Shown: piece after piece, positions 3,828 through 36,772 of the stretch
Layout of the letters: each line of letters opens with the position of its first letter
Numbering within the stretch: position 1 is the first letter of the stretch
IMG/VR virus record: IMGVR_UViG_3300010354_000079
Location: 1 to 64,000 of that record
Source: a virus
Length of the DNA stretch: 64,000 nucleotides
Strand: one strand, 5' to 3'
Notes under the pieces: generated by a model
Seen by the model: only the letters and a program-made list of their open reading frames with translations
Told to the model about the DNA's origin: nothing
Databases searched by the model: none
Program-made: the position numbers and the translations under genes

Positions 3828-4457
3828 TTAAACAATGAGAGAGTTAGGAATAAATTTCTGACTCCTCCAGTGCTTACCCGTCTGAACATGTCCCTCTCGA
3901 ACAAACTTCGCAACAGAGGTTCCGAAGTCGTCATAGTGGAAAGACTGGGCGTATCGAACTACATACCCTTCGACTTTTGTTGTGTCCAGGGAATTTGCGA
4001 TTTCCCGAATCTTCTTCTCGTTCCACTCTCCATTGTATAGGACAGGGACAGAGCAGATTCCCAGCATCGAGAAAAAGTCCTGGGTATCTTCCCAGGAAAG
4101 TGCACAGTTCCTTTCATCCCAAACGCTAAACCCGTAAAAATACGACTTCAGGTCTGAGTAGGAAATACTGTGACGAGCCCACAGATTCTCTCCGCAAATA
4201 CGCCAACCGACTGGAATCTCGTGACGAATCTGAGCCCAGAACTGTTTCACCCAGGCCCGGTCCTCTCCGCCTTTGCTATCGAGGCTGCGAGCATGGATGT
4301 GGTCGCTATACAAGGTTGTATTCTCTCCGTCCATTTTCTCGGTTACAACAACCGTGCGACCCACAAAACTTTGAACGCTCGAAAGGACTTTGTCGTCACT
4401 CGTGACTGCCTCCGACCAGGGCAGGTGGAAGGTTCGAGGGTATTTTACGTGAGCCAT
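3828..4457 (-). CDS. ATP-dependent RNA ligase (PF09414-like, small)
   Basis: KYPRTFHLPWS and EKMDGEN (KxDG nucleotidyltransferase motif I); start trimmed to MAHVKY because cassette E2 lies inside the ORF-track N-extension. Confidence 0.6.
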   Translation of the reverse strand: MAHVKYPRTFHLPWSEAVTSDDKVLSSVQSFVGRTVVVTEKMDGENTTLYSDHIHARSLDSKGGEDRAWVKQFWAQIRHEIPVGWRICGENLWARHSISYSDLKSYFYGFSVWDERNCALSWEDTQDFFSMLGICSVPVLYNGEWNEKKIREIANSLDTTKVEGYVVRYAQSFHYDDFGTSVAKFVREGHVQTGKHWRSQKFIPNSLIV

Positions 4458-4479
4458 CTCTCGAGCACCTGAACGTAAC

Positions 4480-4526
4480 CTACTATAGGGCCATCCCCGA
4501 AACGCGTAAAGGGCGGGTTCCCGCCC
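4480..4526 (-). promoter_or_regulatory. cassette E2 (type A palindrome GGGCGGGAACCCGCCC + TTTACG + TATAGT)
   Basis: TATAGT 24 nt upstream of RNA ligase ATG. Confidence 0.5.
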
Positions 4527-4608
4527 TCTCCAGGATCGCTCCAGGGGAGCCATCTGTTTTGGTAACCCATTGGGCCACCCCACCCGAGAGCCCGCCTTTC
4601 CGGACTCC

Positions 4609-6105
4609 CTAGGCCTGGCTGGGGAGGACCTCGAGAAACTCCCAACCGGCTCCCGGTGGGTCCCTAAACAGCTTTACCTCTTTCGTCGTAACGTTTCGAT
4701 ACGGGGAAGAAAGCTTCCAGTTTGAGTTGCTACAGTGCTCTAACCCTTTCCCTCTCTTGAACTCTCTCCACTCTGTTGAGACCCACATTTCCGGCCACAC
4801 ACCGCGCCATTCTTTGTGCCTCTTTCCCTTTTCCGGTAAATTCTCAATCGAGTACCGCATAAACTCCCGTCTACAATCTTCGCACTCAAGCTTTTCCAGA
4901 TATATCATGTTTTCTCGAGAGTAAAACACGAGCGAGATGCGTTCCGCATCCTCTGACATCTTAACCATTTCTGTGTTTCCATGAAGAAGAGTTTGAGTAT
5001 CGCCAGCGATGAAATCCCCATCCCGTAAATCAAAGGCGAGCCTTAACTCGGGAAAGACAAGGTAGTGTCCTTCGTAGTTACCTCTTGTCAAAGCTGTGAG
5101 AACGGCAAGAGCGCCTTTCAGGTTATTCTTGTCAACGTGGTAAGCAGTCCGAAAGTTAAAATTTAGGGTAATGCTTGTGAACGCAGTTCCGAACAAGTTG
5201 TAAGCGGGTTCCGAAACACGGGAAATAACGTCGCGAACGGATTGCCAGGTGAGTGGAAAAGTCTGACGAAAGCCTTCGCAAGCAGCAAAGTATATAGGCT
5301 GGTAAAGGGAGAAGCTATCGTAAAATTTCACGGTCGTCCCACTGAGTCGCCCGTAAGGAAATCTGCACCCTCGGTCTATGGCACCAAGAACATTGCTATA
5401 GCAATGGTTAAAGTTTAGCTGGATACTAATGAAGTTATCCATCGCGTCTTTCGTGGTTTGAACTTTGTTTTCCGATGGCAACCACTCGTTCTCAAGCCAG
5501 GGGTCAAACCATCCCCACAGAATCTTTCGCTTTCGAGAGATAAGATCTTTGCGATCTTCTTCCTGGAGGTCTTTCCTTTTAAGTTCTCGATCTACCTCTT
5601 TCAAAGTTTCTTTCACCTTAGGAAAAGCCTTCACAACTTGTTTCAGCTTTACCGTTTTGGTCGTGAGCTCGTCGGAACTATTTAGAACGTCTCTTGCTTG
5701 TTCCAGGGTTGTGAGTAACCCGGCACAAGACTGAGCAAAGAACGCAACCTGCCCCTTTGTCAGGCGAGCTTCAGGTCTTGTAGTAAACTCTGTTCCTGCG
5801 ACGACACCTCTCTGGGTTCCGTACACTTCACGAGAGGCTTTACGAAAGAACTCCCAAACGTCGGGTTGTTTCTCTCGTCCGTCTTTGAGTAAGGGAAACA
5901 AGGACTTTCGAAATGCCAGAACTTTTTTACCATCGACGAAAACGTCGCAATCCTCGCGAATGACCTCGTCGTAGTCTGACTCAGTGGGAAACTTGCCAAC
6001 ATATTCACTTTTAGAGCACAGTGCGAGTTCTTCTCGTGTTATCTTTCGTGGGTTGGTTCTTGAGCGCAAGTCTCTATCAATTTCTTCCCTAGTCTCTCTG
6101 TTCAT
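4609..6105 (-). CDS. TET/JBP-family 2OG-Fe(II) dioxygenase (nucleic-acid base hydroxylase)
   Basis: AYHVDKNN (HxD), LLHGNTE (distal His) and ERISLVFYSR; RISLVFY matches the 2OG-binding Arg segment I recall from human TET2 (HPTRISLVFYQHK). Confidence 0.6.
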   Translation of the reverse strand: MNRETREEIDRDLRSRTNPRKITREELALCSKSEYVGKFPTESDYDEVIREDCDVFVDGKKVLAFRKSLFPLLKDGREKQPDVWEFFRKASREVYGTQRGVVAGTEFTTRPEARLTKGQVAFFAQSCAGLLTTLEQARDVLNSSDELTTKTVKLKQVVKAFPKVKETLKEVDRELKRKDLQEEDRKDLISRKRKILWGWFDPWLENEWLPSENKVQTTKDAMDNFISIQLNFNHCYSNVLGAIDRGCRFPYGRLSGTTVKFYDSFSLYQPIYFAACEGFRQTFPLTWQSVRDVISRVSEPAYNLFGTAFTSITLNFNFRTAYHVDKNNLKGALAVLTALTRGNYEGHYLVFPELRLAFDLRDGDFIAGDTQTLLHGNTEMVKMSEDAERISLVFYSRENMIYLEKLECEDCRREFMRYSIENLPEKGKRHKEWRGVWPEMWVSTEWREFKRGKGLEHCSNSNWKLSSPYRNVTTKEVKLFRDPPGAGWEFLEVLPSQA

Positions 6106-6213
6106 ACAAGACTCTACAAACGAACGTATTATACAATTCCTGAAGAAAGTAAATCTAAATCTACAAAAAAAAAAGAGGCCGGATAAGCCCCTTTCCTACA
6201 GAATCTTCGAAAA

Positions 6214-6519
6214 CTATCGAACTCGCTTCACATGGTCCCAATGGGGGCTCTTCACAACGGAAGGTTTCACTTCAGGAGTCCGCTGAGCCGCTTTTCGAGC
6301 CCTAAGCATTTCCCACAAGGCTTGTTTCAGTTTCGGATCATCCGTTTTTTCGTACGCTTCCTGAAGCCGGGCAAATGCCTCGTCTCGGCGAGGAATGATA
6401 AGCCCATCCTTTTTTAGGGTAGTTGGAGAAATGTCAAGGGACTCACCTGCTTTCACTTTTGGACGACCAAAGTTTCCAGTGTGAACACCTTTTGTTCGAA
6501 GGCCATGATCATTAGCCAT
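6214..6519 (-). CDS. hypothetical protein (101 aa, basic)
   Basis: ORF track. Confidence 0.4.
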   Translation of the reverse strand: MANDHGLRTKGVHTGNFGRPKVKAGESLDISPTTLKKDGLIIPRRDEAFARLQEAYEKTDDPKLKQALWEMLRARKAAQRTPEVKPSVVKSPHWDHVKRVR

Positions 6520-6522
6520 TTT

Positions 6523-7116
6523 TCACTGCCGGTAGATGAACTTTTTGTCAAAGGCGGCTTTGGCAACCGTCTTCATCTTGAGCGCGATATCCAGATCCGG
6601 AACCAGGGTGATCGGATTATCCAGAAGCTGAGGGAGAATTGAAGGTGCTTTCTCCGTAACTTCTTGATCTTGAAAATGAACCCGGTATTCGGTGCCAATC
6701 TCTTCACAGATGGCGTTGATCGCCATGGCTTTTTCGATAAAGTTGGCGCCGTGGCCCTGAACTCCGTCATCAAGACCCTTGGTGTGAAGGTACTTGTGAA
6801 CCATCTCGTGAAGCAAAACGCTTCGGGTCGCGATCGGGTCGACCGCGATCTTTCGAGAAAGACGAATGGTCTTATCTTTGTAAGAGTAGACGCCGTAAGT
6901 CCTCTTACCAAGCCTTCCATCCCACTTCAGAGTTCCGTAAGAAGTTCGTACCTCACCGTTTTCGTCGGTAAAGGTGTGGGAAGGGAGGATAGGGAGTTCG
7001 CCGTTGAAAAAACGAGCGTTAAACTCTGCATACAGATCACCAAGGTCATACATCACCGTGGAATCCGGGCAGAAAGCTGTGAAAAAGGAATTCGAGAGTT
7101 GAGTTTTGAATTCCAC
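6523..7116 (-). CDS. SprT-like zinc metallopeptidase
   Basis: LLHEMVHKYLH (HExxH) and N-terminal FNARFFNGELP typical of the SprT family; GTG start. Confidence 0.55.
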   Translation of the reverse strand: MEFKTQLSNSFFTAFCPDSTVMYDLGDLYAEFNARFFNGELPILPSHTFTDENGEVRTSYGTLKWDGRLGKRTYGVYSYKDKTIRLSRKIAVDPIATRSVLLHEMVHKYLHTKGLDDGVQGHGANFIEKAMAINAICEEIGTEYRVHFQDQEVTEKAPSILPQLLDNPITLVPDLDIALKMKTVAKAAFDKKFIYRQ

Positions 7117-7199: not shown

Positions 7200-7210
7200 T
7201 TCCCAAGAGG

Positions 7211-8223: not shown

Positions 8224-8514
8224 TCAAGCGACATGGTCCGAATTTCTACCAGGTCCCGAATGAGAGACCAATCGGAGAGGCTCAGAAAGTTTTGCATCGT
8301 CGGTAGTTTCAGGTGGTTTAAGGGTAGTCTTTCCTTGAAGTTGTTCAACCATGAAAGATGCTACTCTTTCTTGGTGTTCTGGGCAAACATTTGGAAGGTG
8401 GTAACTCATTTCGGAGAGGATTGCCATTACCTCTTTTCTCTCCTCCCTTTCTCTTTCTTTAGGGGAATCCTCGTCGGGGAAAGGAACCATAATTGTAATG
8501 GGTTTCAGTTTCAT
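8224..8514 (-). CDS. hypothetical protein (96 aa)
   Basis: ATGA overlap with the HAD gene stop; the overlapping ORF 8115..8348 is less likely. Confidence 0.35.
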   Translation of the reverse strand: MKLKPITIMVPFPDEDSPKEREREERKEVMAILSEMSYHLPNVCPEHQERVASFMVEQLQGKTTLKPPETTDDAKLSEPLRLVSHSGPGRNSDHVA

Positions 8515-8900
8515 ACTCTAACACAGTAAATTCCAAAGCTTTGAACCAGCTGGCAATTTTCGGGTTTGTCGTCAAACCACATTAAGGGTTTTCCGTAGTC
8601 AGAACAAATGGTGTTTATATGGTCCAACTTCACTAGCCAATCTGGACGACCATCGTCATTCGGCCGCATATATACTTTCAACGGGTGGATACCCTTTTCT
8701 GCCAACCAAGAAACGGTGTCTTCTCGTAAGTATTCTGGACGAGCAGTGGAGATAATCAACGGGATCCCTGACTTACGAAAGCCGAGGGCCAGATTCACAA
8801 GTTCACGATTTTCTGTTAAGTTGGTAACAAAGTCGTCAACGTACTTCTGAGAAGTTAAGGTGAGGTCTACGTCAAAAACGATCGAAGGAATGGTTCTCAT
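8511..8900 (-). CDS. HAD-superfamily phosphatase (polynucleotide 3'-phosphatase-like or nucleotidase)
   Basis: FDVDLTLT (DxDxT motif I), IISTARPE (motif II), WFDDKPEN (motif IV). Confidence 0.5.
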   Translation of the reverse strand: MRTIPSIVFDVDLTLTSQKYVDDFVTNLTENRELVNLALGFRKSGIPLIISTARPEYLREDTVSWLAEKGIHPLKVYMRPNDDGRPDWLVKLDHINTICSDYGKPLMWFDDKPENCQLVQSFGIYCVRV

Positions 8901-9911: not shown

Positions 9912-10829
9912 TCATTGGTTAGCAGTTGCACTGCTACTTTTTTCATGGTCGGATCGAGAGAGAGCCTGTAGAATTTTACCTAGCCTCTTCGGCTTCAGGA
10001 AGGACTTAAACTCGAGACCTTCAAACAAAGCAGTCACAACCTCGGTCTCAGGGTTCGAGGAAGCAAACCACGACAGATCAGGGATGTCGTTCTCGAGTGT
10101 CACTAGACGGTAATTACCCGTGAATGTTTCAGAGTGGTTCGAGACTTTGGAATGAAAAAGGATCCGGTCGTAAAGGGTCATCAGAGGGTCAAAAGTTTTA
10201 GCCTTCGACTCGTTTACAATCTTGGCTGCCGTCTTTGGCCCTATCCCAGGAATACCTTTCACATTGTCAGAAGCGTCTCCTGCCAAAGACTTGATAAAGC
10301 GGATCTCGTCCGGTTCCACTCCGTAATCCTCTCGCACCATGTTTTGGTCAAACAGGACCATTTTCTTAGCGGAGTTAAAGAGTAGAACCTTGACTCGGGG
10401 CGTGACCAACTGTAAGAGGTCTCGATCACATGTGAGTATGTGAACTTCCGTAAATGCCCGAGAATTTCTGGAAATATGCGCGATAATGTCGTCGGCTTCG
10501 AAACCCTCTTTACCAACCGGAGTGAACCCGAGAGCCGGAAGAACGTCCTCAACAAGAAGGCTCATGTCCGCAATATGCTCCATGCTCAGCTTGTTTCGGT
10601 TCGCCTTATACTCTGAGCCTTCCCTTTTACGGAAATTTCCCCCTTTATCGCAGCAAGGGACAATGCAGTCATATTTATACTTATCTGTCACAGAGAAAAG
10701 TGCATTGCAGAAACCATAGGTTCCTGTCACAGGTACTCCAAAACTCGTTGTCATTTCTCCCATAGCTCGTGTGAGGGCGGAGCGAGAGCGGTGAAAAAGA
10801 GCGGAAGTATCGACTAGGAGGAGTTTCAT
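9912..10829 (-). CDS. 5'-3' exonuclease / flap endonuclease (RNase H/FEN family)
   Basis: LLVDTSALFHR (PIN-like), GFEADDIIA, TCDRDLLQLV, SDNVKGIPGIGPKTAAKIV (H3TH). Confidence 0.8.
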   Translation of the reverse strand: MKLLLVDTSALFHRSRSALTRAMGEMTTSFGVPVTGTYGFCNALFSVTDKYKYDCIVPCCDKGGNFRKREGSEYKANRNKLSMEHIADMSLLVEDVLPALGFTPVGKEGFEADDIIAHISRNSRAFTEVHILTCDRDLLQLVTPRVKVLLFNSAKKMVLFDQNMVREDYGVEPDEIRFIKSLAGDASDNVKGIPGIGPKTAAKIVNESKAKTFDPLMTLYDRILFHSKVSNHSETFTGNYRLVTLENDIPDLSWFASSNPETEVVTALFEGLEFKSFLKPKRLGKILQALSRSDHEKSSSATANQ

Positions 10830-11545
10830 GGTTTGTGAAAAAATTGCTTAAAGGTGTTCTGAGTGACGTTGTAGGCTGTTAGGCAGCCGTCCCTTTTACT
10901 GTAAGCTCCGGTATCAATGTTGACCCTATCTTCTTTAACAACTGGCTGCCTCTTCACTCCTCCGTCTTCAAAAAGGGTTGGAGTATGACCATGAACAACT
11001 TTTTTCAAGTTCGGGCTCCACTTATGGAACTCTGGCCCATGCTTCAGGAACGGCTCTCGCATCCATAGAAAAGATTCGGCACGATTTTCATCAATGGTCT
11101 TTTGAGGATCGTGTCCCGGGAAGATCCCCCCGTGAACGAATAGAACATCCCCAATCGTCATATAGATTGGGAGTTCCCGAATCCACTCGGTATGGAGACG
11201 CTTTATTTCCTCCATTTGATCGAAGTTTGCCCCGTTTTGAAGCCACTCCCCCATTCCCCAGTTAGGAGCCGTGACGTAGTCCAAGAACATCCTTTCATGG
11301 TTTCCCATGAGCGCATAAAATGCCTGAAGCCCCCAACCCTCGGAGTCTTCGAGGAGGTTACGAGTTTTCTCTAGGACGTTAAGGTCTTCTCCTCCTCGAT
11401 CTATCATATCCCCCAAAAGAACGACTGTGCAACCAGTGTCCTTCACCCACGCAAGAAACTTATCGTAAAGGGTTGCGGTTGCGTGAATATCCCCGAGGGC
11501 AATCACGTCCCCAGGGATTATGTCGTCATTAAATTTCACAGTCAT
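10826..11545 (-). CDS. calcineurin-like metallophosphatase (lambda PPase/ApaH-like)
   Basis: GDIHA, GDMIDRG, GNHE, VHGHT motifs. Confidence 0.7.
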   Translation of the reverse strand: MTVKFNDDIIPGDVIALGDIHATATLYDKFLAWVKDTGCTVVLLGDMIDRGGEDLNVLEKTRNLLEDSEGWGLQAFYALMGNHERMFLDYVTAPNWGMGEWLQNGANFDQMEEIKRLHTEWIRELPIYMTIGDVLFVHGGIFPGHDPQKTIDENRAESFLWMREPFLKHGPEFHKWSPNLKKVVHGHTPTLFEDGGVKRQPVVKEDRVNIDTGAYSKRDGCLTAYNVTQNTFKQFFHKP

Positions 11546-11548: not shown

Positions 11549-12022
11549 TTAGTGCACAAAGCGAACTTTGGAAAAACCCTCGTTGTAGATGTTCTTTATG
11601 GACGCCTCAAGGCTGGCGTGCATCTTTTCAATCACGTATTCGGGAACAAACCGAGGACGGGATGCGTTCTGATTAAGGCAGACCTTCAAAGGCTTGTAAA
11701 CGACGACTGCCACAACTTCGTCGTAACCATAAGAAAGAAGCATCTGAAGAGCGTCCTTACGGTAACGAGACTTGTAGTGAGTGTTATCCAGAATGATCGT
11801 CTTACCGACGTTGTCCTCCAGGATCTCGATCATACGATCGTGAATTTCGGAGTAGTTGCCCTGGATGTTTGGGTCGCCGTACAGCTCCTCGCGAATCGTG
11901 TCGCCGTTGATGATCACGGATCCCGGGATTTCCTTGTGGAGCTGGTTTGCCCAGGTGGACTTTCCGGAACCAGGGGCACCGACCATCATGTAGGCTTTCA
12001 TTGGAGAGGTTTTCTCGTTCAT
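11549..12022 (-). CDS. P-loop kinase, polynucleotide-kinase-like (possible 5'-OH kinase or hmU-DNA kinase)
   Basis: MMVGAPGSGKSTWA Walker A; start trimmed to MNEKTS, 6 nt after TATAAT of cassette E6. Confidence 0.55.
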   Translation of the reverse strand: MNEKTSPMKAYMMVGAPGSGKSTWANQLHKEIPGSVIINGDTIREELYGDPNIQGNYSEIHDRMIEILEDNVGKTIILDNTHYKSRYRKDALQMLLSYGYDEVVAVVVYKPLKVCLNQNASRPRFVPEYVIEKMHASLEASIKNIYNEGFSKVRFVH

Positions 12023-12026
12023 ACCC

Positions 12027-12094
12027 TTATTATAGCGCCAGCGCCTCCCTGAACAGGGCGGCAAACCGGCCACCCAAAGGGTGGGTTACCGCCC
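12027..12094 (-). promoter_or_regulatory. cassette E6 (type B variant; -10 TATAAT, ATG +6)
   Basis: GGGCGGTAACCCACCC...GGCCGGTTTGCCGCCC...TATAATaagggtATG. Confidence 0.5.
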
Positions 12095-12604: not shown

Positions 12605-13516
12605 TTACTTCGATTTCTTTCCTTTCTCGCATTTGTTAAACTTAAATCTAGGAAAGAACTTCTTACGTAAGCGATACTTACATTTTCTTCTCAGCAGAAG
12701 AGAGAGAATGTCCCAGCACCAGCGTCTTTTCGTATTCTTTCTGATTACTAAAACTTTTTCTCCTTCGAGGCCAAACTTGGGTGTGGTTCGTCCTTTCCAG
12801 TTCAAGCCGATTCCGGGCTTACTTTCTAGGTGAATGACCGGAACTTCCGGCAAAAGCTCTCTTTTGTCCCTCGGCCACTTTTTAGCGTGAAGGACATCGG
12901 TTCGATCCGCGAAACCGTGTTGATCTGGGTATTCGTAGACCCCTGACCCCTTTGGGTTCCATAGCTGAAAATAACCGATCGGTTCATACCCGCCATGGTA
13001 GTTTTTGTACTCAGCCAACCGCACCCCTACCGGGAAACTATCTAAGTGAATAAATATCCAGGAATCTTGTAACGGAGGAGTAGTGTCCAGAAAGTTCAAC
13101 CACTCTCTGTACCCAGGGCACATTAACCTATCTGCCCCATAGAGTTTTTGCGGGTCTAACGGAAGATTTTCAAGGATGTCTCGAGTTAAAGGGGGCAGGT
13201 ATATATCTGAGTCTAGGTGAAGAACCCACCCATCGAGACTCAATCTTTTCAAACCTTCGTTGATACCTTTTCCTTTGTTAAAGGCATCTCCCCCTTCGTA
13301 GAAAACGTCTGTCTGAACACATTCTACGTTATAAAAATCGCAGCACTTTTTGGTTTCTGCGTCTTTCGTGTCAGTCACTACGACTAACTTGTTGAACTGG
13401 TTTCTTACGCTTGGTAAAGTGTGCCTTAGGAAGTCTGAGTAGTTCACGCACACGATAACGGCTTCAAGCTTCATCTTCAAGGTGAGGGGTCGTTTAACTA
13501 AGTTTACCCTCATCAC
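12605..13516 (-). CDS. GT-A fold glycosyltransferase (putative)
   Basis: N-terminal AVIVCVNYSDFL...LVVVTDTKD and HLDSDIY (DxD-like) resemble family-2-type GTs; basic C-tail. Confidence 0.4.
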   Translation of the reverse strand: MMRVNLVKRPLTLKMKLEAVIVCVNYSDFLRHTLPSVRNQFNKLVVVTDTKDAETKKCCDFYNVECVQTDVFYEGGDAFNKGKGINEGLKRLSLDGWVLHLDSDIYLPPLTRDILENLPLDPQKLYGADRLMCPGYREWLNFLDTTPPLQDSWIFIHLDSFPVGVRLAEYKNYHGGYEPIGYFQLWNPKGSGVYEYPDQHGFADRTDVLHAKKWPRDKRELLPEVPVIHLESKPGIGLNWKGRTTPKFGLEGEKVLVIRKNTKRRWCWDILSLLLRRKCKYRLRKKFFPRFKFNKCEKGKKSK

Positions 13517-14974: not shown

Positions 14975-14992
14975 ACCTTCTTAATTAGTTTA

Positions 14993-15082
14993 TAGGCGCC
15001 TAGGGAATCGAACCCTAACTAGCCGGTAATCTGCCGGAGCGGTCCTTATAGGGGACCCTGTGCTACCTTACACCAGACGCCC
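14993..15082 (-). tRNA. atypical type-II tRNA-like gene (anticodon loop CCUAUAA)
   Basis: 7-bp acceptor stem GGGCGUC/GGCGCCU (2 G-U), D-arm GUGU-AAGGUA-GCAC, anticodon stem GGUCC/GGACC, long variable hairpin CCGG-CAGAUUA-CCGG, T-arm UAGGG-UUCGAUU-CCCUA; two nt between D and anticodon stems and C at position 33 are non-canonical. Confidence 0.45.
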
Positions 15083-15108
15083 AAATCAAAGGGCCAAAAG
15101 GCCCTCAA

Positions 15109-18643: not shown

Positions 18644-18667
18644 CGGTTTCTTGAGCTTGTTACCTAA

Positions 18668-20527: not shown

Positions 20528-20546
20528 TCTTTGTTTTGCAAAGAAC

Positions 20547-20766: not shown

Positions 20767-20789
20767 TGAAATTTCCGTCTAACGGAAAT

Positions 20790-22595: not shown

Positions 22596-22762
22596 TTTCT
22601 TTCGTCCAAGTTGATTGTTCTTTTTCAAATACAAGGCTGGATCAACTTTGTATAACGGTAGTTTTGTCGGTACAGTGACGTTTGTATTTGGAGTACAATG
22701 TTCTACTGAACCACCGTTCAAAGACAGCATAGTGCGGCTACCCTGGCAGTAAACTCTGCCTC

Positions 22763-23984: not shown

Positions 23985-24839
23985 TCACTTATCCGTCAAA
24001 CCTCCGGGGAGAAAGTCCATCTTGGCACCATTGATGATAACCATCTTTTGAATGGAACCATTCGCAAAGGCAGCTTTGAGAATCTCATTTCGCTGATACT
24101 CAAGCGATTGACTCGTTACAGTAGAAGCAAGAGCTTTATTCTCTTCTGCTTTCAATTGTGCGGTTTCGGTTTTCACTTGTTGCTCTTTGAGAGCGGATTG
24201 TGCGGCAACCACACGATTGACCGAAGCAACAAGGTCGTCTGGGAGGTCGGCCTTTCCGACGATAATGGAGTCTACAGTAATTTTACCTTCGAGTCCATTT
24301 TTCTTGAGGGCTTCACCAAGATTGCTCTTGATCGTGTCCTGAATTTGCTCAAGGCTGCTATTCACAGAAAGAGCGGGAAACTCGTCTACAGACTGATTCA
24401 CTGCGGACGTAATCAGTCGGGAGATATAGCTAGCCATCAACTGAACCTGACCGTTTTCACCGATTCCGTGATTGGTCATGTCGTAGCTGGTGTAGAACTC
24501 GTAGATAGAGTTCGGGTTGATGCTGTATGTGACGGTAACATCCATCTCTTTCATGATGGTGTTATCCTTCGTTTTCGGTCGCAGATCGTTAGCGGTCACG
24601 GTGATCTTACGAGTGTTGAACACCTTGATCGACCCAAAACCGTCGTACTTGATACCGGGAGTCAGAACTTCGTTCTTAACTTGCCCGTCGAAACCGACGT
24701 AGAGACCGTTCTCACCAGTGCTAATGGTTGTAAACTGGCCTGCAGTGAGAGTGATACCGAGGACGATTGCCCCAACGCCAACGGCGACTTTTGTGAGTGA
24801 CATGTTTTTGTTTGTTTTGACTGAAGGTTTAGCTTTCAT
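23985..24839 (-). CDS. SPFH/band-7 (prohibitin/HflC-like) membrane protein
   Basis: N-terminal TM (VAVGVGAIVLGITL) followed by SPFH-like domain and coiled-coil tail. Confidence 0.55.
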   Translation of the reverse strand: MKAKPSVKTNKNMSLTKVAVGVGAIVLGITLTAGQFTTISTGENGLYVGFDGQVKNEVLTPGIKYDGFGSIKVFNTRKITVTANDLRPKTKDNTIMKEMDVTVTYSINPNSIYEFYTSYDMTNHGIGENGQVQLMASYISRLITSAVNQSVDEFPALSVNSSLEQIQDTIKSNLGEALKKNGLEGKITVDSIIVGKADLPDDLVASVNRVVAAQSALKEQQVKTETAQLKAEENKALASTVTSQSLEYQRNEILKAAFANGSIQKMVIINGAKMDFLPGGLTDK

Positions 24840-25339: not shown

Positions 25340-25539
25340 TAGGCTGTCAGAAGAATGAACATTTCTTTTTGATCGTAAGACTGGGAAAGATGAAGACCCT
25401 CTTTTCGGAGAATTTCGAGGGCTTGAAGGTCACCACGAGCCATTAGTTTCTCGCACTGGTTGGCGATGTCCCAGAGCCGAATTCCAACGGCTTCTTCAAG
25501 GGAGAAGCCTGTCACTCGCTGATACTCATCTTCATTCAT
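25339..25539 (-). CDS. hypothetical protein (66 aa)
   Basis: ORF track. Confidence 0.3.
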   Translation of the reverse strand: MNEDEYQRVTGFSLEEAVGIRLWDIANQCEKLMARGDLQALEILRKEGLHLSQSYDQKEMFILLTA

Positions 25540-26266
25540 GTCTAATCTTCACAAGTGACTTTTCTTCAACATCCCAGAGGCACAGGTGTGCTTCTTCCGG
25601 GTTAGAGTCTTCAAGGCATGAACCGCCCATACCACCGTCCAGGACGAGGCTCTTCTCGCTGACGTGGACGTGATGGTAGTGACCGGCAACGCGAACCCAG
25701 TCTCGGTCGGATTCTTCTTCCCACCAAAATACACGAGTCTCGTCTTGCGGCCAAACCGATCCCGGTCGGCGAGGGCCAAAGAGCATATAGTCGGCAGCTT
25801 TCCGAGTAACTTGCTCTACGTAGTAAACACCTTCGTAAGGGGGGACGAGAAGCCAACGAGGAAACATTGCGTGAGCGCAACGGTATTCGGTTTCCCTGGA
25901 ATCCTGAAAAACAACGCCATAGGGGAACGAGTTGAGCCACTCGCCGACTTCTTCTAAGGGAATTCCAGCCTCCTTAAAGTCGGAAAGAGTCTTGTTAATG
26001 GAGGTATCCAGGTGGACATTGTTTCCGCGAATGTACCTCTCGAGCTTGTTTTGGTGATTGCTACGTAGAATTACTGCTCCCCTTTCTGTAGCTGCGCGGG
26101 CTTCGCGGTAAACTTCTGCGCTGTAGCTTTCCTCGACTCGGGAGTCGAAGAGGTCGCCAAGGAGGAGTGGAACTTTGCCATTTTCCTCACAGTAGGTCAG
26201 AGCCTGCAGGAGGGGCTCGATTTGAGAGTGTATGTCGCCGATGATGGCGAAGTTCGGTCCGTTCAT
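25532..26266 (-). CDS. calcineurin-like metallophosphoesterase (paralog of 33488..34213)
   Basis: GDIHS, GDLFDS, SNHQ motifs; downstream of cassette E10. Confidence 0.6.
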   Translation of the reverse strand: MNGPNFAIIGDIHSQIEPLLQALTYCEENGKVPLLLGDLFDSRVEESYSAEVYREARAATERGAVILRSNHQNKLERYIRGNNVHLDTSINKTLSDFKEAGIPLEEVGEWLNSFPYGVVFQDSRETEYRCAHAMFPRWLLVPPYEGVYYVEQVTRKAADYMLFGPRRPGSVWPQDETRVFWWEEESDRDWVRVAGHYHHVHVSEKSLVLDGGMGGSCLEDSNPEEAHLCLWDVEEKSLVKIRHE

Positions 26267-27173: not shown

Positions 27174-27539
27174 CTAAGGTTTGTCACCAAAAAGGTCTTT
27201 AAACCTTGAGTTAATAACTTTCCTGAGAGCCTCAGGGTCTACTCGAATTTTTCGCAGGTGATCCCATGCGTGATCATCGTCAAGGAGGGCCTTAACAACC
27301 TCTCTCTCTTTTTCAACCATCAGCTTCCACCTAGAGTCGGCAGTCTTGGAGAGAGACTCTGCGATATCTTTGTTGTGTTTATCTGTTTCAGGGTCTGCCC
27401 CAACTGAAGGAAATCTTACTTCCCCGTCTGCTCTCTCCCACAAGTCCCATGTTTTAAGGTAAGTTGCCACCTTGTCTAGGTTGATTTCACTATCTGGAGC
27501 TAAATTGTCGTTTGTCATTTTCCAGTTTTCAGCAACCAT
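27174..27539 (-). CDS. hypothetical protein (121 aa)
   Basis: ORF track. Confidence 0.4.
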   Translation of the reverse strand: MVAENWKMTNDNLAPDSEINLDKVATYLKTWDLWERADGEVRFPSVGADPETDKHNKDIAESLSKTADSRWKLMVEKEREVVKALLDDDHAWDHLRKIRVDPEALRKVINSRFKDLFGDKP

Positions 27540-28600
27540 TGATTACTAATTGCCTTGAAGGTGAAGTCAGAGTCGCAAGACTTGAAGACTACTCCTTCGC
27601 GCTTCACCTCAGGGTTAAGGGAAGGACCATCTGCGAAAGATAGCAGGCTTTCCACATTGGCAAAGGACTGCCTTAGGCCATAGCAATGCTCAAGGATGGG
27701 AACGTGAGTTACGTCCGCCCCAAGAGGAACCAGTTCATTCTCAAGCAGGTCGAAACGGGGACTCGGCTTCAGGTGGGATTGAGCGTCGATGTCGAAAACA
27801 TCAAACAGAAAGAACCTTTGACCCTTGACCCTTTCCTGGTTTCCCTGGATTCCTTCGCCAATCAACTCACCCTGAAGGGCAATGTTGCGACCCGTTTTTT
27901 CGTAGAAGGTAATCAGAGCGTCAAGAATGCCTTGATCCCGCGCAGCTTTCCAAAAGCTGTTGGTATCGGATTCCTTCAGGTCAAGATTGCGGCTGCAAAC
28001 GCCTACAACCCCATCCTTCACATAGATCGTGCAAGAGGAACCATCCAGCTTGATGGTAATCTCATAGCCTTCATCCACGTGATCCTGGAAGATTTCCTTT
28101 GCCAGATTTTGGCAACGTTCCTGATCCGTCTTCGGAATCCAGCTTGGGAAGTTTCCGCGAACTTGACCTGCCAGACATGCGGGGATCGGGGCCTCCCACT
28201 TTTGGACTCCAAGAAATTCAGTCAGGTCGTCGCCTTCCTGAAGACCCCTCTCAAAAGCGGTAACATGGTAGCTGAAGTCCAGGTTAAGCTTGAGGGAGAT
28301 AGGCAACAGCAAGCCCTGGCTAACTTGGCCGCGAAGCTTGACGGTCTTGAGGCGTTCGCCCTTCACCCCGTTGTACTCGCGCGGCTCCTTGCCCTTACTC
28401 AAAAACGGAGCGAGCTCGTGGGGGACCCAGCTATCAATTTCAAGGTAGAGTGCCAGGTTGCCCACGGTAAATTCACCCTTCTTCACAACCACGGGCCAGC
28501 CACCTCCAACAATAGCGCATTCAATGGCATCAGCGTCCGGAATGGGGCGAATTTCGGTGATTTGCTTGATGGAAGCAAGTTTTCGAGTTGTTTCAGTCAT
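27515..28600 (-). CDS. ATP-dependent RNA ligase (PF09414-like, large form)
   Basis: ITIKLDGSS (KxDG motif I) with downstream nucleotidyltransferase-like motifs; 361 aa. Confidence 0.55.
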   Translation of the reverse strand: MTETTRKLASIKQITEIRPIPDADAIECAIVGGGWPVVVKKGEFTVGNLALYLEIDSWVPHELAPFLSKGKEPREYNGVKGERLKTVKLRGQVSQGLLLPISLKLNLDFSYHVTAFERGLQEGDDLTEFLGVQKWEAPIPACLAGQVRGNFPSWIPKTDQERCQNLAKEIFQDHVDEGYEITIKLDGSSCTIYVKDGVVGVCSRNLDLKESDTNSFWKAARDQGILDALITFYEKTGRNIALQGELIGEGIQGNQERVKGQRFFLFDVFDIDAQSHLKPSPRFDLLENELVPLGADVTHVPILEHCYGLRQSFANVESLLSFADGPSLNPEVKREGVVFKSCDSDFTFKAISNQWLLKTGK

Positions 28601-32829: not shown

Positions 32830-33456
32830 TCACTTGGTCTCTTCATTGCGCAGAATGCGAGCGAGTTTCACCAGATACTCGTCGCTCCCGTAAATCTCTC
32901 TCAGCTTACCAAAGTCCCCTTTATCGATAAGTCCTCGCATCATCGTCGAACTTTCGGAACCTTCGGGTCTCGGAATCAACTGCCCACCGATGCCAAGCTT
33001 TTTGGTCAATCCTTCGAGGTGGTTCTTGCGATCTTCACCAAGGGCGAGAAGAACGTTTTTGGCTCCTTGTTCATCAACAACTTTCTTCAGGGCTTCATAC
33101 GTGTTAGAGGCGTGGATGAATCTCACTCGGGAGACATCCACACCTTGCTGTTTCAGCACGCGACGAAACATCAAATTTCGAAGGTTCCAGTCGACATTGG
33201 TCTTCGCCCCGCTCATGATTACGTTAACCACCTGGGATTTTTCCAGTAGATTCTGAATCACACGAGCGTGTCCAGGAGTCGGGATATTGTACTTCCCCCA
33301 GGTCACCCCGACTTTGAACGGCTTCTCTTTCGCCCCAGTCTCAGTCCCTTTTCGGCACTTTCCTTTCGTACCATAGTATGTTCCGTCAGAGCGGACACAG
33401 CGAGTGAAGTCGAAAACCAGATCTGTCACTTCTTTGCGAATAAATCCGGAATACAT
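32830..33456 (-). CDS. NMNAT-like nucleotidyltransferase fused to the N-module
   Basis: GKYNIPTPGHARVIQ ((H/T)xGH motif) and ESSTMMRGLI (ISSTxxR-like) after N-terminal FDFTRCVRSDGTYYGTKGKCRKGTE. Confidence 0.5.
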   Translation of the reverse strand: MYSGFIRKEVTDLVFDFTRCVRSDGTYYGTKGKCRKGTETGAKEKPFKVGVTWGKYNIPTPGHARVIQNLLEKSQVVNVIMSGAKTNVDWNLRNLMFRRVLKQQGVDVSRVRFIHASNTYEALKKVVDEQGAKNVLLALGEDRKNHLEGLTKKLGIGGQLIPRPEGSESSTMMRGLIDKGDFGKLREIYGSDEYLVKLARILRNEETK

Positions 33457-33487: not shown

Positions 33488-34213
33488 CTAGTCAAACACT
33501 TCAAAGGGGACAACCTCCCTCTGCTCAACATCGTAAAGTAAAAGTTGGGGTAACCGTTTGTCAAACCAAGACCGGGTCTTCCCTCCACATCCGGCGTCGA
33601 GAACGAGGCTGCGGCCATCGTTAACAACCTTGTGGTAATGGCCCGCTACCAAAATCCAGTCTCGAGGTTCCTTTCTGCGCCACCAGAAACGCTTCCAGTC
33701 AGGTAAAGAGTAGTCCGCCCCCCACAAAAGTTTTCGAGCTTCTTCCGGAGTGGGGTCAAAGTACTTCCAGGTCCCTTCGTAGTCCGGAACCCGTATAGAA
33801 GCCGGAATTTCCGCGTGGGCCACTCGGTATTCTACTCCTCTGGAGTCGCGAAAGGCTACTATGTACGGAAAGGTTTCTAGCCAGCTAGCCACTTCTTGAA
33901 TGCAGATACCGGCCCTTCTAAATTCCTCTACAGTGCGGGCGAGGTCCTTCTTCAAAGGGATCTCTTTCTTGTTCGCCAAACACTCAAGCAGGTGCTGGTG
34001 ATTCGAACGGAGAACGATGGACCCTAGCTCCTTTTGTGAGCTACGGACCGCCATGTAAACAGCTGGCGCGTCCGAAATATTGCATTGGGAATCAAAGAGG
34101 TCTCCGAGAAACAAAGGAGACAGCCCTTTCTCCTTACAGTACAAAAGAGCCTTCTCCAAAGGTCTCGGTTGGGAATGAACGTCCCCGATAATTGCGTATC
34201 TACTTTGCGTCAC
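33488..34213 (-). CDS. calcineurin-like metallophosphoesterase (paralog of 25532..26266)
   Basis: GDVHS, GDLFDS, SNHQ motifs. Confidence 0.6.
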   Translation of the reverse strand: MTQSRYAIIGDVHSQPRPLEKALLYCKEKGLSPLFLGDLFDSQCNISDAPAVYMAVRSSQKELGSIVLRSNHQHLLECLANKKEIPLKKDLARTVEEFRRAGICIQEVASWLETFPYIVAFRDSRGVEYRVAHAEIPASIRVPDYEGTWKYFDPTPEEARKLLWGADYSLPDWKRFWWRRKEPRDWILVAGHYHKVVNDGRSLVLDAGCGGKTRSWFDKRLPQLLLYDVEQREVVPFEVFD

Positions 34214-34431: not shown

Positions 34432-34779
34432 TTACAGCCTCTGCTCTAGTAGACGTTTGATTGTGTCACCGTGGCAACGCTTGGGTGCGCAACAGCACAC
34501 CAACTCCAGCGTTTCGCAGTCCGGTTCCTTTGCGATAGCCAGCAACGTATTGAATTGCTTCAGTTGAGAACCTTCCTCCAGGATCTTAGCTCCCAGCCAC
34601 TCTTCGTAAGCGTCACAGACTCGGTTCCTCTCGCTCTGACTCGCATCTTTCATCACAAAAGGGTTTCCCAAAGGAGTCCCCCTCATAATTGTGACGCGGC
34701 GAACTCCTTCTGGAGGTTGCGTTGGTCGGTTGCCAAGATGGTACTTGTTAACGACTCGGATATCAGACATCTTCTTCAA
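34432..34779 (-). CDS. hypothetical protein, DUF4326-like (C..CxCxP..CHGD)
   Basis: VVNKYH...RGTPLGNPF...CCCAPKRCHGD pattern. Confidence 0.3.
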   Translation of the reverse strand: MKKMSDIRVVNKYHLGNRPTQPPEGVRRVTIMRGTPLGNPFVMKDASQSERNRVCDAYEEWLGAKILEEGSQLKQFNTLLAIAKEPDCETLELVCCCAPKRCHGDTIKRLLEQRL

Positions 34780-34984: not shown

Positions 34985-35340
34985 TTTGTTATGCGCTTTT
35001 GAGATTTAGTTGAACTTCGGGGGAGGTGCCCACGGCGAGCCAGTTCTTCTCTCATCGGTTTTAACCGTTTTTCAGCTTCGTTGAGCTGTCTGCGAATGTC
35101 GACACAGCCAGAACAATCGCAGCTCCAAACCCAGTCCTCCAAGTAGAAGTGGGTTCTTTTTCTCTCTGAGCGATACGCAGATAGCAAACGAGGGGTTGGT
35201 AAAGAGAGGATCGTTTCGAGTGAGTTACGGTTGGGGTCCATTTGTTGAGTGGCAGTATTTCGTCGGCAGTTTGAACAGTTAGACGAGGAGGTCAGTCGTT
35301 TTCGTTTAGGGTGTGAAGTTCTCCAAGATTTAGCGGGCAA
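34981..35340 (-). CDS. hypothetical protein (paralog of 35330..35635; LPTPRLL motif)
   Basis: ILSLPTPRLLSAY vs LLKLPTPRLLKVF in the neighbouring gene. Confidence 0.35.
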   Translation of the reverse strand: MPAKSWRTSHPKRKRLTSSSNCSNCRRNTATQQMDPNRNSLETILSLPTPRLLSAYRSERKRTHFYLEDWVWSCDCSGCVDIRRQLNEAEKRLKPMREELARRGHLPRSSTKSQKRITK

Positions 35341-35635
35341 CGTGTTCCCTCTTATCGAGTTCTGCTTTAAGTTTCTCCTTTAGATTCACTAAATCCCTAA
35401 TCTGCAAAGCCTTGTACAATGGGTTAGACTTAGGGCGACCGTGTTCATCTCTGACCCACCTTGAAATGTCAGCATTTTCAGGAAGGCAGTTAAGCTCCTC
35501 TTCTCGAAGTTTGTAATTGTCCCAGTCCCACTCATTTACCACGCTCAACTGGCCCCGCACTTTTTGAAACACCTTAAGCAACCTAGGTGTAGGTAGTTTC
35601 AGTAGGTAGTTCAGATTGTTGTTGTTTGGGTTCAT
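35330..35635 (-). CDS. hypothetical protein (paralog of 34981..35340)
   Basis: shared LPTPRLL segment. Confidence 0.35.
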   Translation of the reverse strand: MNPNNNNLNYLLKLPTPRLLKVFQKVRGQLSVVNEWDWDNYKLREEELNCLPENADISRWVRDEHGRPKSNPLYKALQIRDLVNLKEKLKAELDKREHVAR

Positions 35636-35674
35636 AGTTTCGTTGGGTGCATGGGAAATAAAAGAGGGAAGCCC

Positions 35675-36772
35675 TCAGGCAATCCCCAGGAGGGCATCCA
35701 GCTTCTTCGGAGACAAGCCTTCCAGCCATTCACCAAAGGTGCCAACCTTGCCAGCGCGAAGCGTGAAGCAAGCGTTTGACAACCCCTTGGACTCAGCCAG
35801 AACAGCCTGAGCGAACTCCTTTTGGTTCAGATGGTTGTGGGCTTCCATCATCGAATCCACAGCAGCTTCCATCATATCAATGGAACGCAGGTGGACATCA
35901 AACCGCTCACGGTACTCAGGGAAGTGAAGCAGAAACTCTTCCAGGTCGTCGTTGAGAAACAACTCGGAGAAGTCCGGATCGCCATTACCGCGAACGCGGT
36001 GGAGCTGGCAATATACATCACTCTTGACCTTTGCGCGTCCGCGACCGTCCGACAGAATGAAACCTTCGTGATCAGCGCCACGACCATTCACGGCAGATTC
36101 GACAGCGGCGAGGTCGCCGAAATCGTAAGACCGAGCCAGGTTGAAGTCCGGTGCGAAAAACTCCAGATTCAGCTCTTCGAAGTCGATCTTCCGATCGCGA
36201 ACCGCCAACAGCGGCAGCTGGGGCTCTTCGTACTCCACGACGATTCGGTTGTCCTTGTGGCACAGTTCAAAGACGTAGCACAAGTTTGGATCCAGAACGT
36301 TACGTGAGTAACCAACTTCGTCGAAGACAGCCCAGAACAGATCCGCGAAAGAGCGACCGGTGGTACCTACTTCCGAAGCCCCAGCGACGGAGCCGGAAGT
36401 AGAGACAATCCAATCATTCTTGTAGTGGAATAACTTGATCAAGGACCCGTCGTACTTCTCGTAGACCTTGGTACGCGACCAATCCAACTCGTGGCAGTAA
36501 CCCTCGCCAACGTTGAAAAAACGATCGAACGCATACGCAACCAAGCGGTAGTACGGCGAGTGGTCACCATCGTTATCTACACGCTCGACAACGGCACCAC
36601 GGCAAGCCCGAACCAAGGGGTCGGCCTTGTCAGTCATGACGGATCCGTACTTCAGATTAAACAGATTCGGGTAGCGCTCGTCGCGAGCCACGCGAATGTC
36701 GCGCTCAGCTAAAGCACCAAAGTCATACCGGTCGTTCAACCAGTCGATCAGGTAGTGGCGGAGGTTTTCCAT
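35675..36772 (-). CDS. RNA ligase 2 (Rnl2)-family ATP-dependent RNA ligase
   Basis: VYEKYDGSLIKLF (KxDGS motif I); start trimmed to MENLRHY, 6 nt after TATAGT-like element of cassette E13. Confidence 0.65.
   Translation of the reverse strand: MENLRHYLIDWLNDRYDFGALAERDIRVARDERYPNLFNLKYGSVMTDKADPLVRACRGAVVERVDNDGDHSPYYRLVAYAFDRFFNVGEGYCHELDWSRTKVYEKYDGSLIKLFHYKNDWIVSTSGSVAGASEVGTTGRSFADLFWAVFDEVGYSRNVLDPNLCYVFELCHKDNRIVVEYEEPQLPLLAVRDRKIDFEELNLEFFAPDFNLARSYDFGDLAAVESAVNGRGADHEGFILSDGRGRAKVKSDVYCQLHRVRGNGDPDFSELFLNDDLEEFLLHFPEYRERFDVHLRSIDMMEAAVDSMMEAHNHLNQKEFAQAVLAESKGLSNACFTLRAGKVGTFGEWLEGLSPKKLDALLGIA

Follow-up and report, generated by a model that had tools for sequence, protein, structure and literature searches.

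A candidate RNA end-healing and sealing gene set in an uncultured phage, probably a jumbo phage of picocyanobacteria

Background

Jumbo phages encode several ATP-dependent RNA ligases per genome, which are probably non-redundant (Iyer et al. 2021, Viruses 13:63, PMC7824862). For example, XacN1 has three Rnl2-family ligases, and BcepSauron has RtcB, Rnl1 and Rnl2 (PMC7824862). In jumbo phages, the presence of polynucleotide kinases and phosphoesterases follows that of the ATP-dependent ligases, with HAD phosphatases being usual and calcineurin-like ones rare, and some of these phages also carry a ROT/TROVE protein together with a tRNA-like partner (PMC7824862). Here we describe eight genes that may form an RNA repair kit: three predicted RNA ligases (lig1, lig2 and lig3), a P-loop kinase, an HAD phosphatase and three metallophosphoesterases (MPE1, MPE2 and MPE3). 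They lie in positions 1-64,000 of the viral IMG/VR record IMGVR_UViG_3300010354_000079, a stretch of 64,000 nucleotides that covers part of the genome and that we call the window.

In phage T4, Pnkp and Rnl1 counter the PrrC anticodon nuclease. The functional syntax of RNA repair was reportedly laid out by Burroughs and Aravind in 2016. Ro60 with tRNA-like Y RNAs has been described both beside RNA repair genes and in phages (PMC4201824).

The window appears to encode a kit with several pathways for healing and sealing RNA ends against RNase-based defences of the host, a reading that we regard as reasonably probable. It is suggested by catalytic residues conserved with respect to the Naegleria gruberi RNA ligase (NgrRnl), T4 Rnl1 and the kinase domain of Clostridium thermocellum Pnkp (CthPnkp), and by the intact motifs of the metallophosphoesterases and the HAD protein. 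The concept is not new, because multi-ligase kits are already documented in jumbo phages. An earlier note on this DNA had called the set unusually complete, which is contradicted by the descriptions of XacN1 and BcepSauron, where three RNA ligases occur with matching kinases, phosphatases and ROT/TROVE proteins (PMC7824862). The value of the locus is thus that of a well-resolved, conserved example and not that of a new kind of system.

Eight genes with predicted roles at RNA ends

The eight open reading frames (ORFs) listed in the earlier note are all present on the minus strand, and its shorter starts are right for lig1, lig3 and the kinase. Nearly all genes of the window are on this strand, as is every gene, promoter and RNA for which we give window coordinates below. 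The translations contain the motifs EKMDGEN, KYPRTFHLPWS, IKLDGSS, EKYDGSL, GAPGSGKST and DVDLT, as had been reported. Searches with profile hidden Markov models place all eight proteins, with strong scores, in the enzyme superfamilies proposed for them, and every gene belongs to a family whose characterised members act on nucleic-acid ends. No protein among the eight proved to be a DNA ligase, a capping enzyme or a protein kinase. The first two identities were rejected given that the sole DNA-ligase match is sub-threshold (E 0.0075), and a protein kinase identity was likewise rejected for the P-loop protein. What is established here directly is the family membership of the proteins, their catalytic motifs, the order of the genes, its conservation in relatives and the promoter motifs.

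Like the window, the kits of jumbo phages comprise several ligases, a kinase, phosphatases of the HAD and calcineurin types and a ROT/TROVE protein (in the window, a Ro-like candidate) with a tRNA-like partner, and genes for Macro proteins and NAD salvage lie close by. XacN1 encodes homologs of lig1, and BcepSauron homologs of lig2. Unlike the kits described, the window combines an Rnl1 ligase, an Rnl5-type ligase and a minimal ligase consisting only of a nucleotidyltransferase domain. It also has three metallophosphoesterases plus a stand-alone PNKP-type HAD, and its kinase is not fused to a phosphatase. A further difference is that RlaP, RtcB, 2H and CCA-adding enzymes are missing within the 64 kb window, in which Pfam scans took in all ORFs of at least 150 aa and most of at least 100 aa.

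Three RNA ligases of different lineages

lig2 (27515..28600) has an N-terminal OB domain (PF21189, residues 8-101) and a nucleotidyltransferase domain (PF09414, residues 179-350). It scores 210 bits on TIGR02306, whose equivalog cutoff is 151, and aligns over its full length with NgrRnl (5COT; E 4.7e-92, ~50% identity). Based on this domain layout, the score above the cutoff and the similarity to NgrRnl, we classify lig2, from its sequence, as a predicted nick-sealing RNA ligase of the Rnl5 (DraRnl/NgrRnl) type. All of the mutationally defined residues of NgrRnl are kept (K170, D172, R149, E227, E312, K326 and K121). Unlike the cellular NgrRnl and DraRnl, with which it shares the N-terminal OB domain, these residues and a score that passes the TIGR02306 cutoff, lig2 is encoded by a phage.

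lig3 (35675..36772) had been proposed to be an Rnl2-like RNA ligase. That it is an RNA ligase is supported by Pfam and by its alignment with T4 Rnl1, but its family is Rnl1, and it includes the Rnl1-type C-terminal region. It matches PF09511 at 66.8 bits (cutoff 28.3; E 3.2e-18) over profile positions 2-227 of 227, spans positions 38-350 of the 377-position phrog_562 and aligns with T4 Rnl1 (2C5U) with an E-value of 3.4e-8. This alignment conserves R54, F77, K99, D101, G102, E159, E227, G228, K240 and K242, and the equivalents of R54, F77 and motifs I, III, IV and V of T4 Rnl1 are found in the segments ACRG, FFN, KYDGSL, FEL, EGF and KVKSD. K75 of T4 Rnl1 is replaced by R in lig3, and K119 is not conserved. 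Unlike the T4 enzyme, lig3 is far below the cutoff of the T4 RnlA equivalog model (TIGR02308; 41.7 versus 242 bits), and it is therefore a distant member of the Rnl1 family with no ortholog-level match to T4 RnlA. Its start at 36772 is indicated by homologs that align from residue 3 and by a -10 box 7 nt upstream, and a terminator-like hairpin is located at 35664-35676. In one relative (L096), a homolog of an HNH endonuclease is directly upstream of lig3; in the window, this free-standing HNH endonuclease (40095..40685) adjoins the NAMPT gene.

The third ligase, lig1 (3828..4457; 209 aa), is a stand-alone nucleotidyltransferase-domain ligase (PF09414, 116 bits, E 2.4e-33) without an OB domain and without the Rnl2-type C-terminal domain that is needed for step 2 of nick sealing. 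It also matches phrog_34045 and phrog_24030, and has no NCBIfam match. The protein carries motifs I, Ia, III, IIIa, IV and V, and K41, R57, E90, F107/F110, E163, G164 and K184 are invariant in an alignment of 42 homologs. It terminates at residue 209, immediately past motif V, and is therefore a minimal enzyme made up of the nucleotidyltransferase domain alone. The start at 4457 is backed by a 100%-identical database protein of 209 aa (P0001), which is encoded on a 65.5 kb JGI metagenome contig.

Searches of the PDB with the single lig1 sequence and with its family profile gave chance matches to fatty-acid-binding proteins and no solved relative. The fold expected for lig1 was nevertheless recovered by structure prediction: the top Foldseek PDB matches of an AF2 model (predicted local distance difference test, pLDDT, 89.9) are all RNA ligases, and the model resembles the nucleotidyltransferase domains of NgrRnl, MthRnl, PpaRnl, Trl1, T4 Rnl2 and T4 Rnl1. 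The family has 2,096 representative clusters, whose members are ~209 aa long or have an N-terminal HNH fusion, and within sequenced phages it is found almost exclusively in the jumbo and huge ones. lig1 is best described as belonging to a separate clade of proteins with the nucleotidyltransferase domain only, rather than to the full Rnl2 family. This clade might, although we consider it doubtful, be a biochemically distinct class of minimal RNA ligases that need a partner for substrate binding.

No significant pairwise similarity was detected among the three ligases (hhalign, lig1 versus lig2 or lig3). We thus rejected a recent duplication, and the three proteins appear, judging by their sequences, to be independent acquisitions from deeply different lineages. 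All three occur together on the 201 kb contig IMGVR_UViG_3300044645_002359 and on 3300042464_000635.

A Pnkp-like kinase and two types of phosphatase

The kinase (11549..12022; PF13671, E 1.9e-20) is predicted to be a polynucleotide 5′-kinase like that of bacterial Pnkp. Among solved structures, the kinase domain of CthPnkp is the nearest (4GP7, E 5e-13), followed by PSTK, Capnocytophaga Pnkp1 and T4 Pnk. In the alignment with 4GP7, the P-loop, the Asp general base, the Arg residues and the lid Arg all line up. The protein matches positions 12-153 of TIGR04075 and also phrog_505. A -10 box 6 nt upstream supports the start at 12022, and the kinase of a relative aligns from residue 8.

MPE1 (10826..11545) starts 3 nt past the kinase stop codon. 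It is a metallophosphoesterase of the lambda-phosphatase/ApaH type (PF00149, 53.9 bits; phrog_246) that holds all five metal-binding motifs in their canonical PPP form. Its PDB matches (2ZBM, 1G5B and 2QJC) comprise lambda phosphatase, a Shewanella tyrosine phosphatase and ApaH-like enzymes. Accordingly, the proposal that MPE1 is a metallophosphoesterase stands, while the end-healing role that had been assigned to it is ambiguous in view of its nearest relatives, which are lambda phosphatase, ApaH-like proteins and a protein-tyrosine phosphatase. Lambda phosphatase and CthPnkp are reported to have a common 2′,3′-cyclic phosphodiesterase chemistry (PMC2190708).

The stop codon of MPE1 is overlapped by 4 nt by the start of a gene for a FEN-type 5′-3′ exonuclease (9912..10829; PF02739 and PF01367), and farther downstream is the stand-alone HAD phosphatase (8511..8900). 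The HAD protein is of the PNKP 3′-phosphatase type (PF25109, HAD_PNKP, 35.9 bits; cutoff 27.6), contains the motifs DVDLT, STAR and FDDKP, and covers positions 163-290 of the 295-position phrog_505, i.e. the C-terminal half of this ‘polynucleotide kinase’ family. A search against the PDB yielded no meaningful match for it, so its assignment is drawn from Pfam and PHROGs. An IMG/VR scan for the kinase, run with a two-sequence alignment, recovered 19 related loci in which the kinase and MPE1 genes are adjacent. FEN is present in 18 of the 19, and so is HAD, 1.3-3.4 kb downstream of kinase-MPE1(-FEN).

The T4 Pnkp/Rnl1 system resembles the window in having an Rnl1-family ligase with conserved catalytic residues and C-terminal region, a PNKP-type HAD 3′-phosphatase and a P-loop 5′-kinase. 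Unlike the T4 Pnkp fusion, the kinase and HAD of the window are encoded by different genes, and the 2.6 kb that separate these genes hold MPE1, FEN and small ORFs. The kinase is also nearer to bacterial Pnkp (E 5e-13) than to T4 Pnk (E 5e-5).

MPE2 (25532..26266) and MPE3 (33488..34213) are paralogs with 43% identity, and both match PF00149 above its cutoff. MPE2 additionally matches positions 174-302 of phrog_8238, positions 180-305 of TIGR04075, and PrpE. When a profile of the MPE2/MPE3 family was compared with all PDB sequences, only the phosphatase domain of CthPnkp was found (4J6O, E 2e-7). The metal ligands D, H, D, N, H, H and H are present, with SNH replacing GNH. The family consists of 245 proteins, and its sole matches in sequenced phages are in seven cyanophage records. 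MPE3 adjoins a nucleotidyltransferase-like gene with a HIGH motif (TPGH; 32830..33456), which may encode an NMNAT, and a DUF4326 gene (34432..34779); the order DUF4326, MPE3, nucleotidyltransferase is kept in two relatives (L005 and L101).

The C. thermocellum Pnkp-Hen1 system is similar to the window in that its Pnkp provides the best solved relatives of both the kinase (4GP7, E 5e-13) and the MPE2/MPE3 profile (4J6O, E 2e-7). Unlike the tri-domain polypeptide CthPnkp, the window has its domains on separate genes, the best TIGR04075 score being 56.7 bits against a cutoff of 750, and in MPE2 and MPE3, SNH replaces GNH(D/E) and GDxxDS replaces GDxxDR. Neither an Rnl4-type ligase domain nor a Hen1-like methyltransferase was found among the scanned ORFs of the window.

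A putative Ro-like protein with tRNA-like RNAs

Downstream of MPE2 are genes for an SPFH/Band-7 protein (23985..24839; PF01145, E 5.7e-19), which is 82-91% identical and syntenic in relatives, and for a putative Ro60-like protein (21132..22769), in which a helical repeat is followed by a vWA domain. The latter matches phrog_850, annotated as ‘RNA-binding protein’, with an E-value of 8e-156, and has an invariant MIDAS motif, DVSGSM. Its Pfam domains are DUF2828 (PF11443) and DUF7788 (PF25043), not TROVE. We found nothing in the literature on the function of DUF2828, and a sequence search of the PDB with the protein found nothing. In a Foldseek search of the PDB with a predicted model of moderate quality, the sole match at E ≤ 1e-3 is human Ro60 (9NEN, 5.9e-4) and the next is 9NF8 (1.2e-3); both align with the model over its full length.

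Three elongated tRNA-like RNAs of 114-118 nt (20159-20272, 20546-20663 and 20789-20904) lie 228-1,000 nt downstream of the Ro-like gene on the same strand, a layout that is kept in relatives and in Synechococcus phage B3. They score 42-46 bits with the Rfam tRNA model. Their acceptor, D and T arms are kept, and an insert of 53-58 nt takes the place of the anticodon loop. The insert contains invariant CAGCA.T and a hairpin with compensatory changes, features that are kept as far as phage B3. Given this conservation, we rejected the idea that the inserts are introns, and the insert is predicted to be a functional RNA domain. With the YrlA covariance model, the RNAs score 20.8 bits (gathering score 69), in a partial match.

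The long tRNA-like RNAs are confined to relatives that have the Ro-like gene, and relatives without the Ro-like and SPFH genes are also without them. The link between these RNAs, the Ro-like protein and the ligases and phosphatases, as suggested in the earlier note, is thus reinforced by a conserved cluster in relatives. A 110-nt element annotated as ‘tRNA-Pseudo-GCA’ in phage B3 (L013, 26705..26814; record 221705..221814) is a homolog of the RNAs in the window and directly follows the DUF2828 gene of that phage, gp345. This element is probably a functional noncoding RNA rather than a pseudogene.

Bacterial Rsr (Ro60)-YrlA pairs beside rtcBA, and the Ro60/YrlA of mycobacteriophages, share several features with the window: a vWA/MIDAS ring-protein candidate, tRNA-like noncoding RNAs within 1 kb on the same strand, and a neighbourhood of RNA repair genes. 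In contrast to these systems, the protein in the window has DUF2828/DUF7788, the RNAs have an unpermuted tRNA topology with an anticodon-loop insert, the ligases are ATP-dependent and not RtcB, and the cluster includes an SPFH protein.

Further tRNA-related elements were observed in this part of the window. Between the first and second tRNA-like elements (~20312..20330), within the sub-threshold YrlA match, is an extra T-arm-like hairpin, CGCAAGUUCGAAUCUUGCC, and the array may contain additional tRNA-like modules that are partial or permuted. An atypical tRNA-like gene of 89-92 nt (14992..15083), with the anticodon UAU and a long variable arm, is called tRNA-Ile by ARAGORN; it is below the Rfam tRNA threshold, and its best Rfam match is tRNA-Sec (23 bits; gathering score 47). 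In every relative examined (L005-L011), a gene for a DUF932 protein (17816..18733 in the window) follows the tRNA-like array, or MPE2, at a distance of a few kb.

Promoter cassettes and conserved linkage

A recurrent cassette, confined to the minus strand, is built from a GC-rich hairpin, a -35-like element (TTTAC, TTTGC or TTGCC), a spacer of 17-19 nt and a -10 box, (GC)TATAGT or TATAAT. Seven copies of GCTATARTW are found in the window where 0.49 are expected, and the -35 elements start at about positions 63956, 36808, 32769, 29160, 26301, 12057, 7445, 7183, 4510, 2344 and 415. Only this specific motif is enriched: a generic scan for sigma-70 promoters and terminators was not enriched over shuffles. 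In most copies only 6 nt separate the -10 box from the ATG, so the mRNAs are predicted to be leaderless.

Cassettes directly precede four of the eight genes. That of lig1 (4482..4510) comprises the hairpin, TTTACG (-35) and CTATAGT (-10), with a leader of ~24 nt. That of the kinase (12023..12057) has the -10 box GCTATAAT, located 6 nt before the ATG, and its transcript would be leaderless. MPE2 is the first gene after a cassette of the leaderless kind (26273-26301), and lig3 has its own cassette (36779-36808). The unit of a fifth gene, lig2, is likewise headed by a cassette, which precedes a 77-aa ORF ~290 nt upstream of lig2. The cassettes upstream of MPE2 and the kinase are conserved in IMG/VR relatives. 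Downstream of MPE2, the SPFH gene, two conserved unknown genes, the Ro-like gene and the three tRNA-like RNAs follow without another cassette in front of them.

The eight genes are therefore not the single module that had been proposed, but are distributed over 33 kb in five or more units, each headed by a promoter, and are interspersed with genes for DNA modification and NAD salvage and with unknown genes. Nonetheless, they are linked in related genomes. Six related loci have all or part of the order (DprA or nucleotidyltransferase)-lig2-Macro-MPE2-SPFH-orf141-orf157-Ro-like-tRNA-like-DUF932, so that the Rnl5 ligase and a Macro gene precede the MPE2-headed unit. One 201 kb contig has lig3, DUF4326, MPE3, the nucleotidyltransferase, lig2, Macro, MPE2, SPFH and the Ro-like gene within 15 kb. 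All three ligases, MPE2 and the neighbours of lig2 share the same contigs in relatives. In view of this synteny and the conserved cassettes, the components of the kit are dispersed yet persistently linked in evolution.

A predicted set of DNA base-hypermodification genes also occurs in the window (2378..7116 and 12605..13516) and is syntenic in one relative (L002), which has two Tet/JBP copies together with TAGT and NTP_transf_3. Its members in the window are an SprT-like gene (6523..7116), a Tet/JBP dioxygenase (4609..6105), an R2K ATP-grasp (2378..3148), a weakly matching Rv2179c-like 3′-5′ exonuclease (3150..3746) and a GT2 glycosyltransferase (12605..13516).

RNA repair and alternative readings

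Substrates, reaction order, ribonucleoprotein assembly and a counter-defence role can be proposed by analogy with T4 Pnkp/Rnl1 acting against PrrC, CthPnkp, NgrRnl, the Rsr-YrlA-RtcB association and the kits surveyed in jumbo phages. Host RNases, such as anticodon nucleases, toxin-antitoxin RNases and HEPN or CRISPR-associated RNases, would cut tRNAs and other RNAs, leaving 2′,3′-cyclic-phosphate or 3′-phosphate ends and 5′-OH ends. The Pnkp-type P-loop kinase would phosphorylate the 5′ end. The 3′ end would be opened and dephosphorylated either by the PNKP-type HAD, as in the T4 route, or by binuclear metallophosphoesterases, namely MPE2 and MPE3, which are related to the Pnkp phosphatase, and the lambda-phosphatase-like MPE1, which is coupled to the kinase. 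One of the three ATP-dependent ligases, each with a different preferred substrate, would then join the 3′-OH and 5′-PO4 ends. The Rnl1-type lig3 may handle breaks in tRNA loops, and the Rnl5-type lig2 may handle nicks in duplex RNA whose 3′-OH strand is RNA. The Ro60-like vWA protein, the SPFH protein and the three tRNA-like RNAs would probably serve as a ribonucleoprotein scaffold or a platform for substrate selection.

A bolder version of this scheme, which we consider doubtful, is that the MPE2 unit (the phosphoesterase, SPFH, the two conserved unknown proteins, the Ro-like protein and the three tRNA-like RNAs) is a phage ribonucleoprotein machine for RNA repair. In this machine, the tRNA-like RNAs, with their conserved insert at the anticodon site, might hold the healing and sealing enzymes at the Ro-like ring, or serve as decoys for, or sensors of, host anticodon nucleases.

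The main rival to an RNA repair kit is that the eight genes are a mixed bag serving different processes and not one toolkit. We judge this to be unlikely, but several observations weigh against RNA repair and are considered here. First, the kinase, MPE1, FEN and HAD genes might form a cluster for DNA-end processing and replication that supplies a 5′-kinase, a 3′-phosphatase and a flap endonuclease for nicked or damaged phage DNA. FEN, an enzyme of DNA replication and repair, is translationally coupled to MPE1 and syntenic in relatives, so the kinase-MPE1 cluster could process DNA ends; T4 Pnkp also acts on DNA ends. By contrast, the closest relatives of the kinase, which are CthPnkp, PSTK, KTI12 and T4 Pnk, all act on RNA or tRNA. 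Moreover, it is the rule in jumbo phages that kinases and phosphoesterases co-occur with ATP-dependent RNA ligases (PMC7824862).

Second, under the same rival, MPE2 and MPE3 might hydrolyse Ap4A, ADP-ribose or NAD-derived immune signals together with the Macro protein, the NMNAT-like nucleotidyltransferase, NAMPT and PRPP synthetase. The Macro-like protein (38832..39323) matches phrog_335 (E 7.5e-41) and, weakly, Pfam Macro (E 0.029), and its homolog is directly upstream of MPE2 in relatives. The neighbours of MPE2 and MPE3 are thus Macro, a HIGH-type nucleotidyltransferase, a paralog of which is directly upstream of the kinase in relatives, and DUF4326. NAMPT and PRPP synthetase are also encoded in the window (40856..43270), so a role in NAD, ADP-ribose or dinucleotide metabolism is possible. 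In addition, the nearest relatives of MPE1 are protein phosphatases and Ap4A hydrolases (ApaH, E 6e-8), and both MPE1 and MPE2 match PrpE. On the other side, what the MPE2/MPE3 profile finds in the PDB is the Pnkp phosphatase domain, with no match to an Ap4A hydrolase or an ADP-ribase, and MPE2 heads the unit that runs into SPFH, the Ro-like protein and the tRNA-like RNAs.

Third, RNA might be the substrate of only the Rnl1-type and Rnl5-type ligases. The minimal ligase, lig1, is adjoined by genes of DNA hypermodification (Tet/JBP, R2K and SprT) both in the window and in one relative, and the kit as a whole is scattered among unrelated Tet/JBP, thymidylate kinase, DprA-like and NAD salvage genes. 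In the Pfam scans of the window, RtcB, Hen1, KptA/Tpt1, 2H/LigT, RlaP and a CCA-adding enzyme were all lacking. The fold match of the Ro-like protein to Ro60 comes from a mediocre model (pLDDT 66.6) with a template modelling (TM) score of 0.35.

Another reading, to which we assign little probability, is that the kit mainly matures or modifies RNAs instead of repairing damage, for example by circularising or joining small RNAs of the phage or host, by removing Np4-type caps with the ApaH-like MPE1, or by remodelling the tRNA pool with the phage tRNAs and transfer-messenger RNA (tmRNA). The resemblance of MPE1 to ApaH is in line with this reading, as is a broad intervention in translation suggested by the tmRNA, tRNAs and elongation factor Ts homolog in the window. 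Against it, the characterised homologs of the core enzymes (T4 Rnl1/Pnkp and CthPnkp) all function in the repair of breaks.

Finally, it is extremely improbable that the kit splices the phage tRNA-like transcripts by excising the 53-58 nt insert and rejoining the halves into functional tRNAs, as had been suggested: the large insert is exactly at the anticodon loop in three genes and ligases and end-healing enzymes are nearby, but the insert, with its invariant CAGCA.T and compensated hairpin, is conserved in relatives and phage B3, no recognisable anticodon stem-loop exists once it is removed, a splicing endonuclease and a sufficiently large group I intron are both absent, and the elements strictly co-occur with the Ro-like gene, as Y RNAs do with Ro60 (PMC4201824).

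If the window does encode an RNA repair kit, this clade of uncultured jumbo phages, probably of picocyanobacteria, would have at least three ligation routes and two chemically different routes of 3′-end healing, which would imply strong and varied RNase-based defences in its hosts. Candidates for biochemistry include the split Pnkp, with its kinase and metallophosphoesterase on separate genes, the cyanophage-restricted clade of Pnkp-like phosphoesterases (245 proteins), and the family of the minimal 209-aa ligase, which has no characterised member. The conserved cluster of Ro-like, SPFH and tRNA-like genes, which could show how Ro-type ribonucleoproteins are connected with RNA repair, is a further candidate.

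Source of the window and additional observations

The window has a GC content of ~48-50%. A megablast search with 18 kb of it against 50,697 phage records gave no match, so there is no close sequenced relative. The lineage is an uncultured cyanophage-like clade that is absent from the phage database at the DNA level. In addition to the metagenome contig with the identical lig1 protein, further window proteins were found on a 90.6 kb contig.

Judged by protein similarity, the nearest cultured relatives are Synechococcus phages. They include S-CREM1 (lig2, 63.6% identity), B3 and B23 (Ro-like protein, 61.7%; SPFH, 67%) and S-CBWM1 (MPE2, 44%). In the 150 kb that we examined of the 245 kb phage B3 genome, no lig1, lig2, kinase or HAD was seen. 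IMG/VR relatives with the same genes are contigs of 190-277 kb. From the Synechococcus-phage relatives, a tmRNA of the cyanobacterial type, an SLH protein and the size of these contigs, we infer that the source is an uncultured jumbo phage of picocyanobacteria. Its genome is probably ~200-280 kb long, and a picocyanobacterium of freshwater or estuaries is its probable host. The window is best explained as part of the early, hyperplastic region of a jumbo phage genome.

Some remaining genes are noted here. The phage-encoded tmRNA (51145..51471) is a permuted, two-piece molecule with the tag peptide ANKIVKFERTAVAV, and the elongation factor Ts homolog is at 54657..55256. Several proteins look as if they are secreted or directed to the envelope (43630..45200, 52245..53144 and 56146..58089). 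This envelope-type set consists of the SLH-domain protein, an RlpA-like DPBB lytic transglycosylase, a papain-family C1 peptidase and a 647-aa subtilase with an RTX-like repeat.

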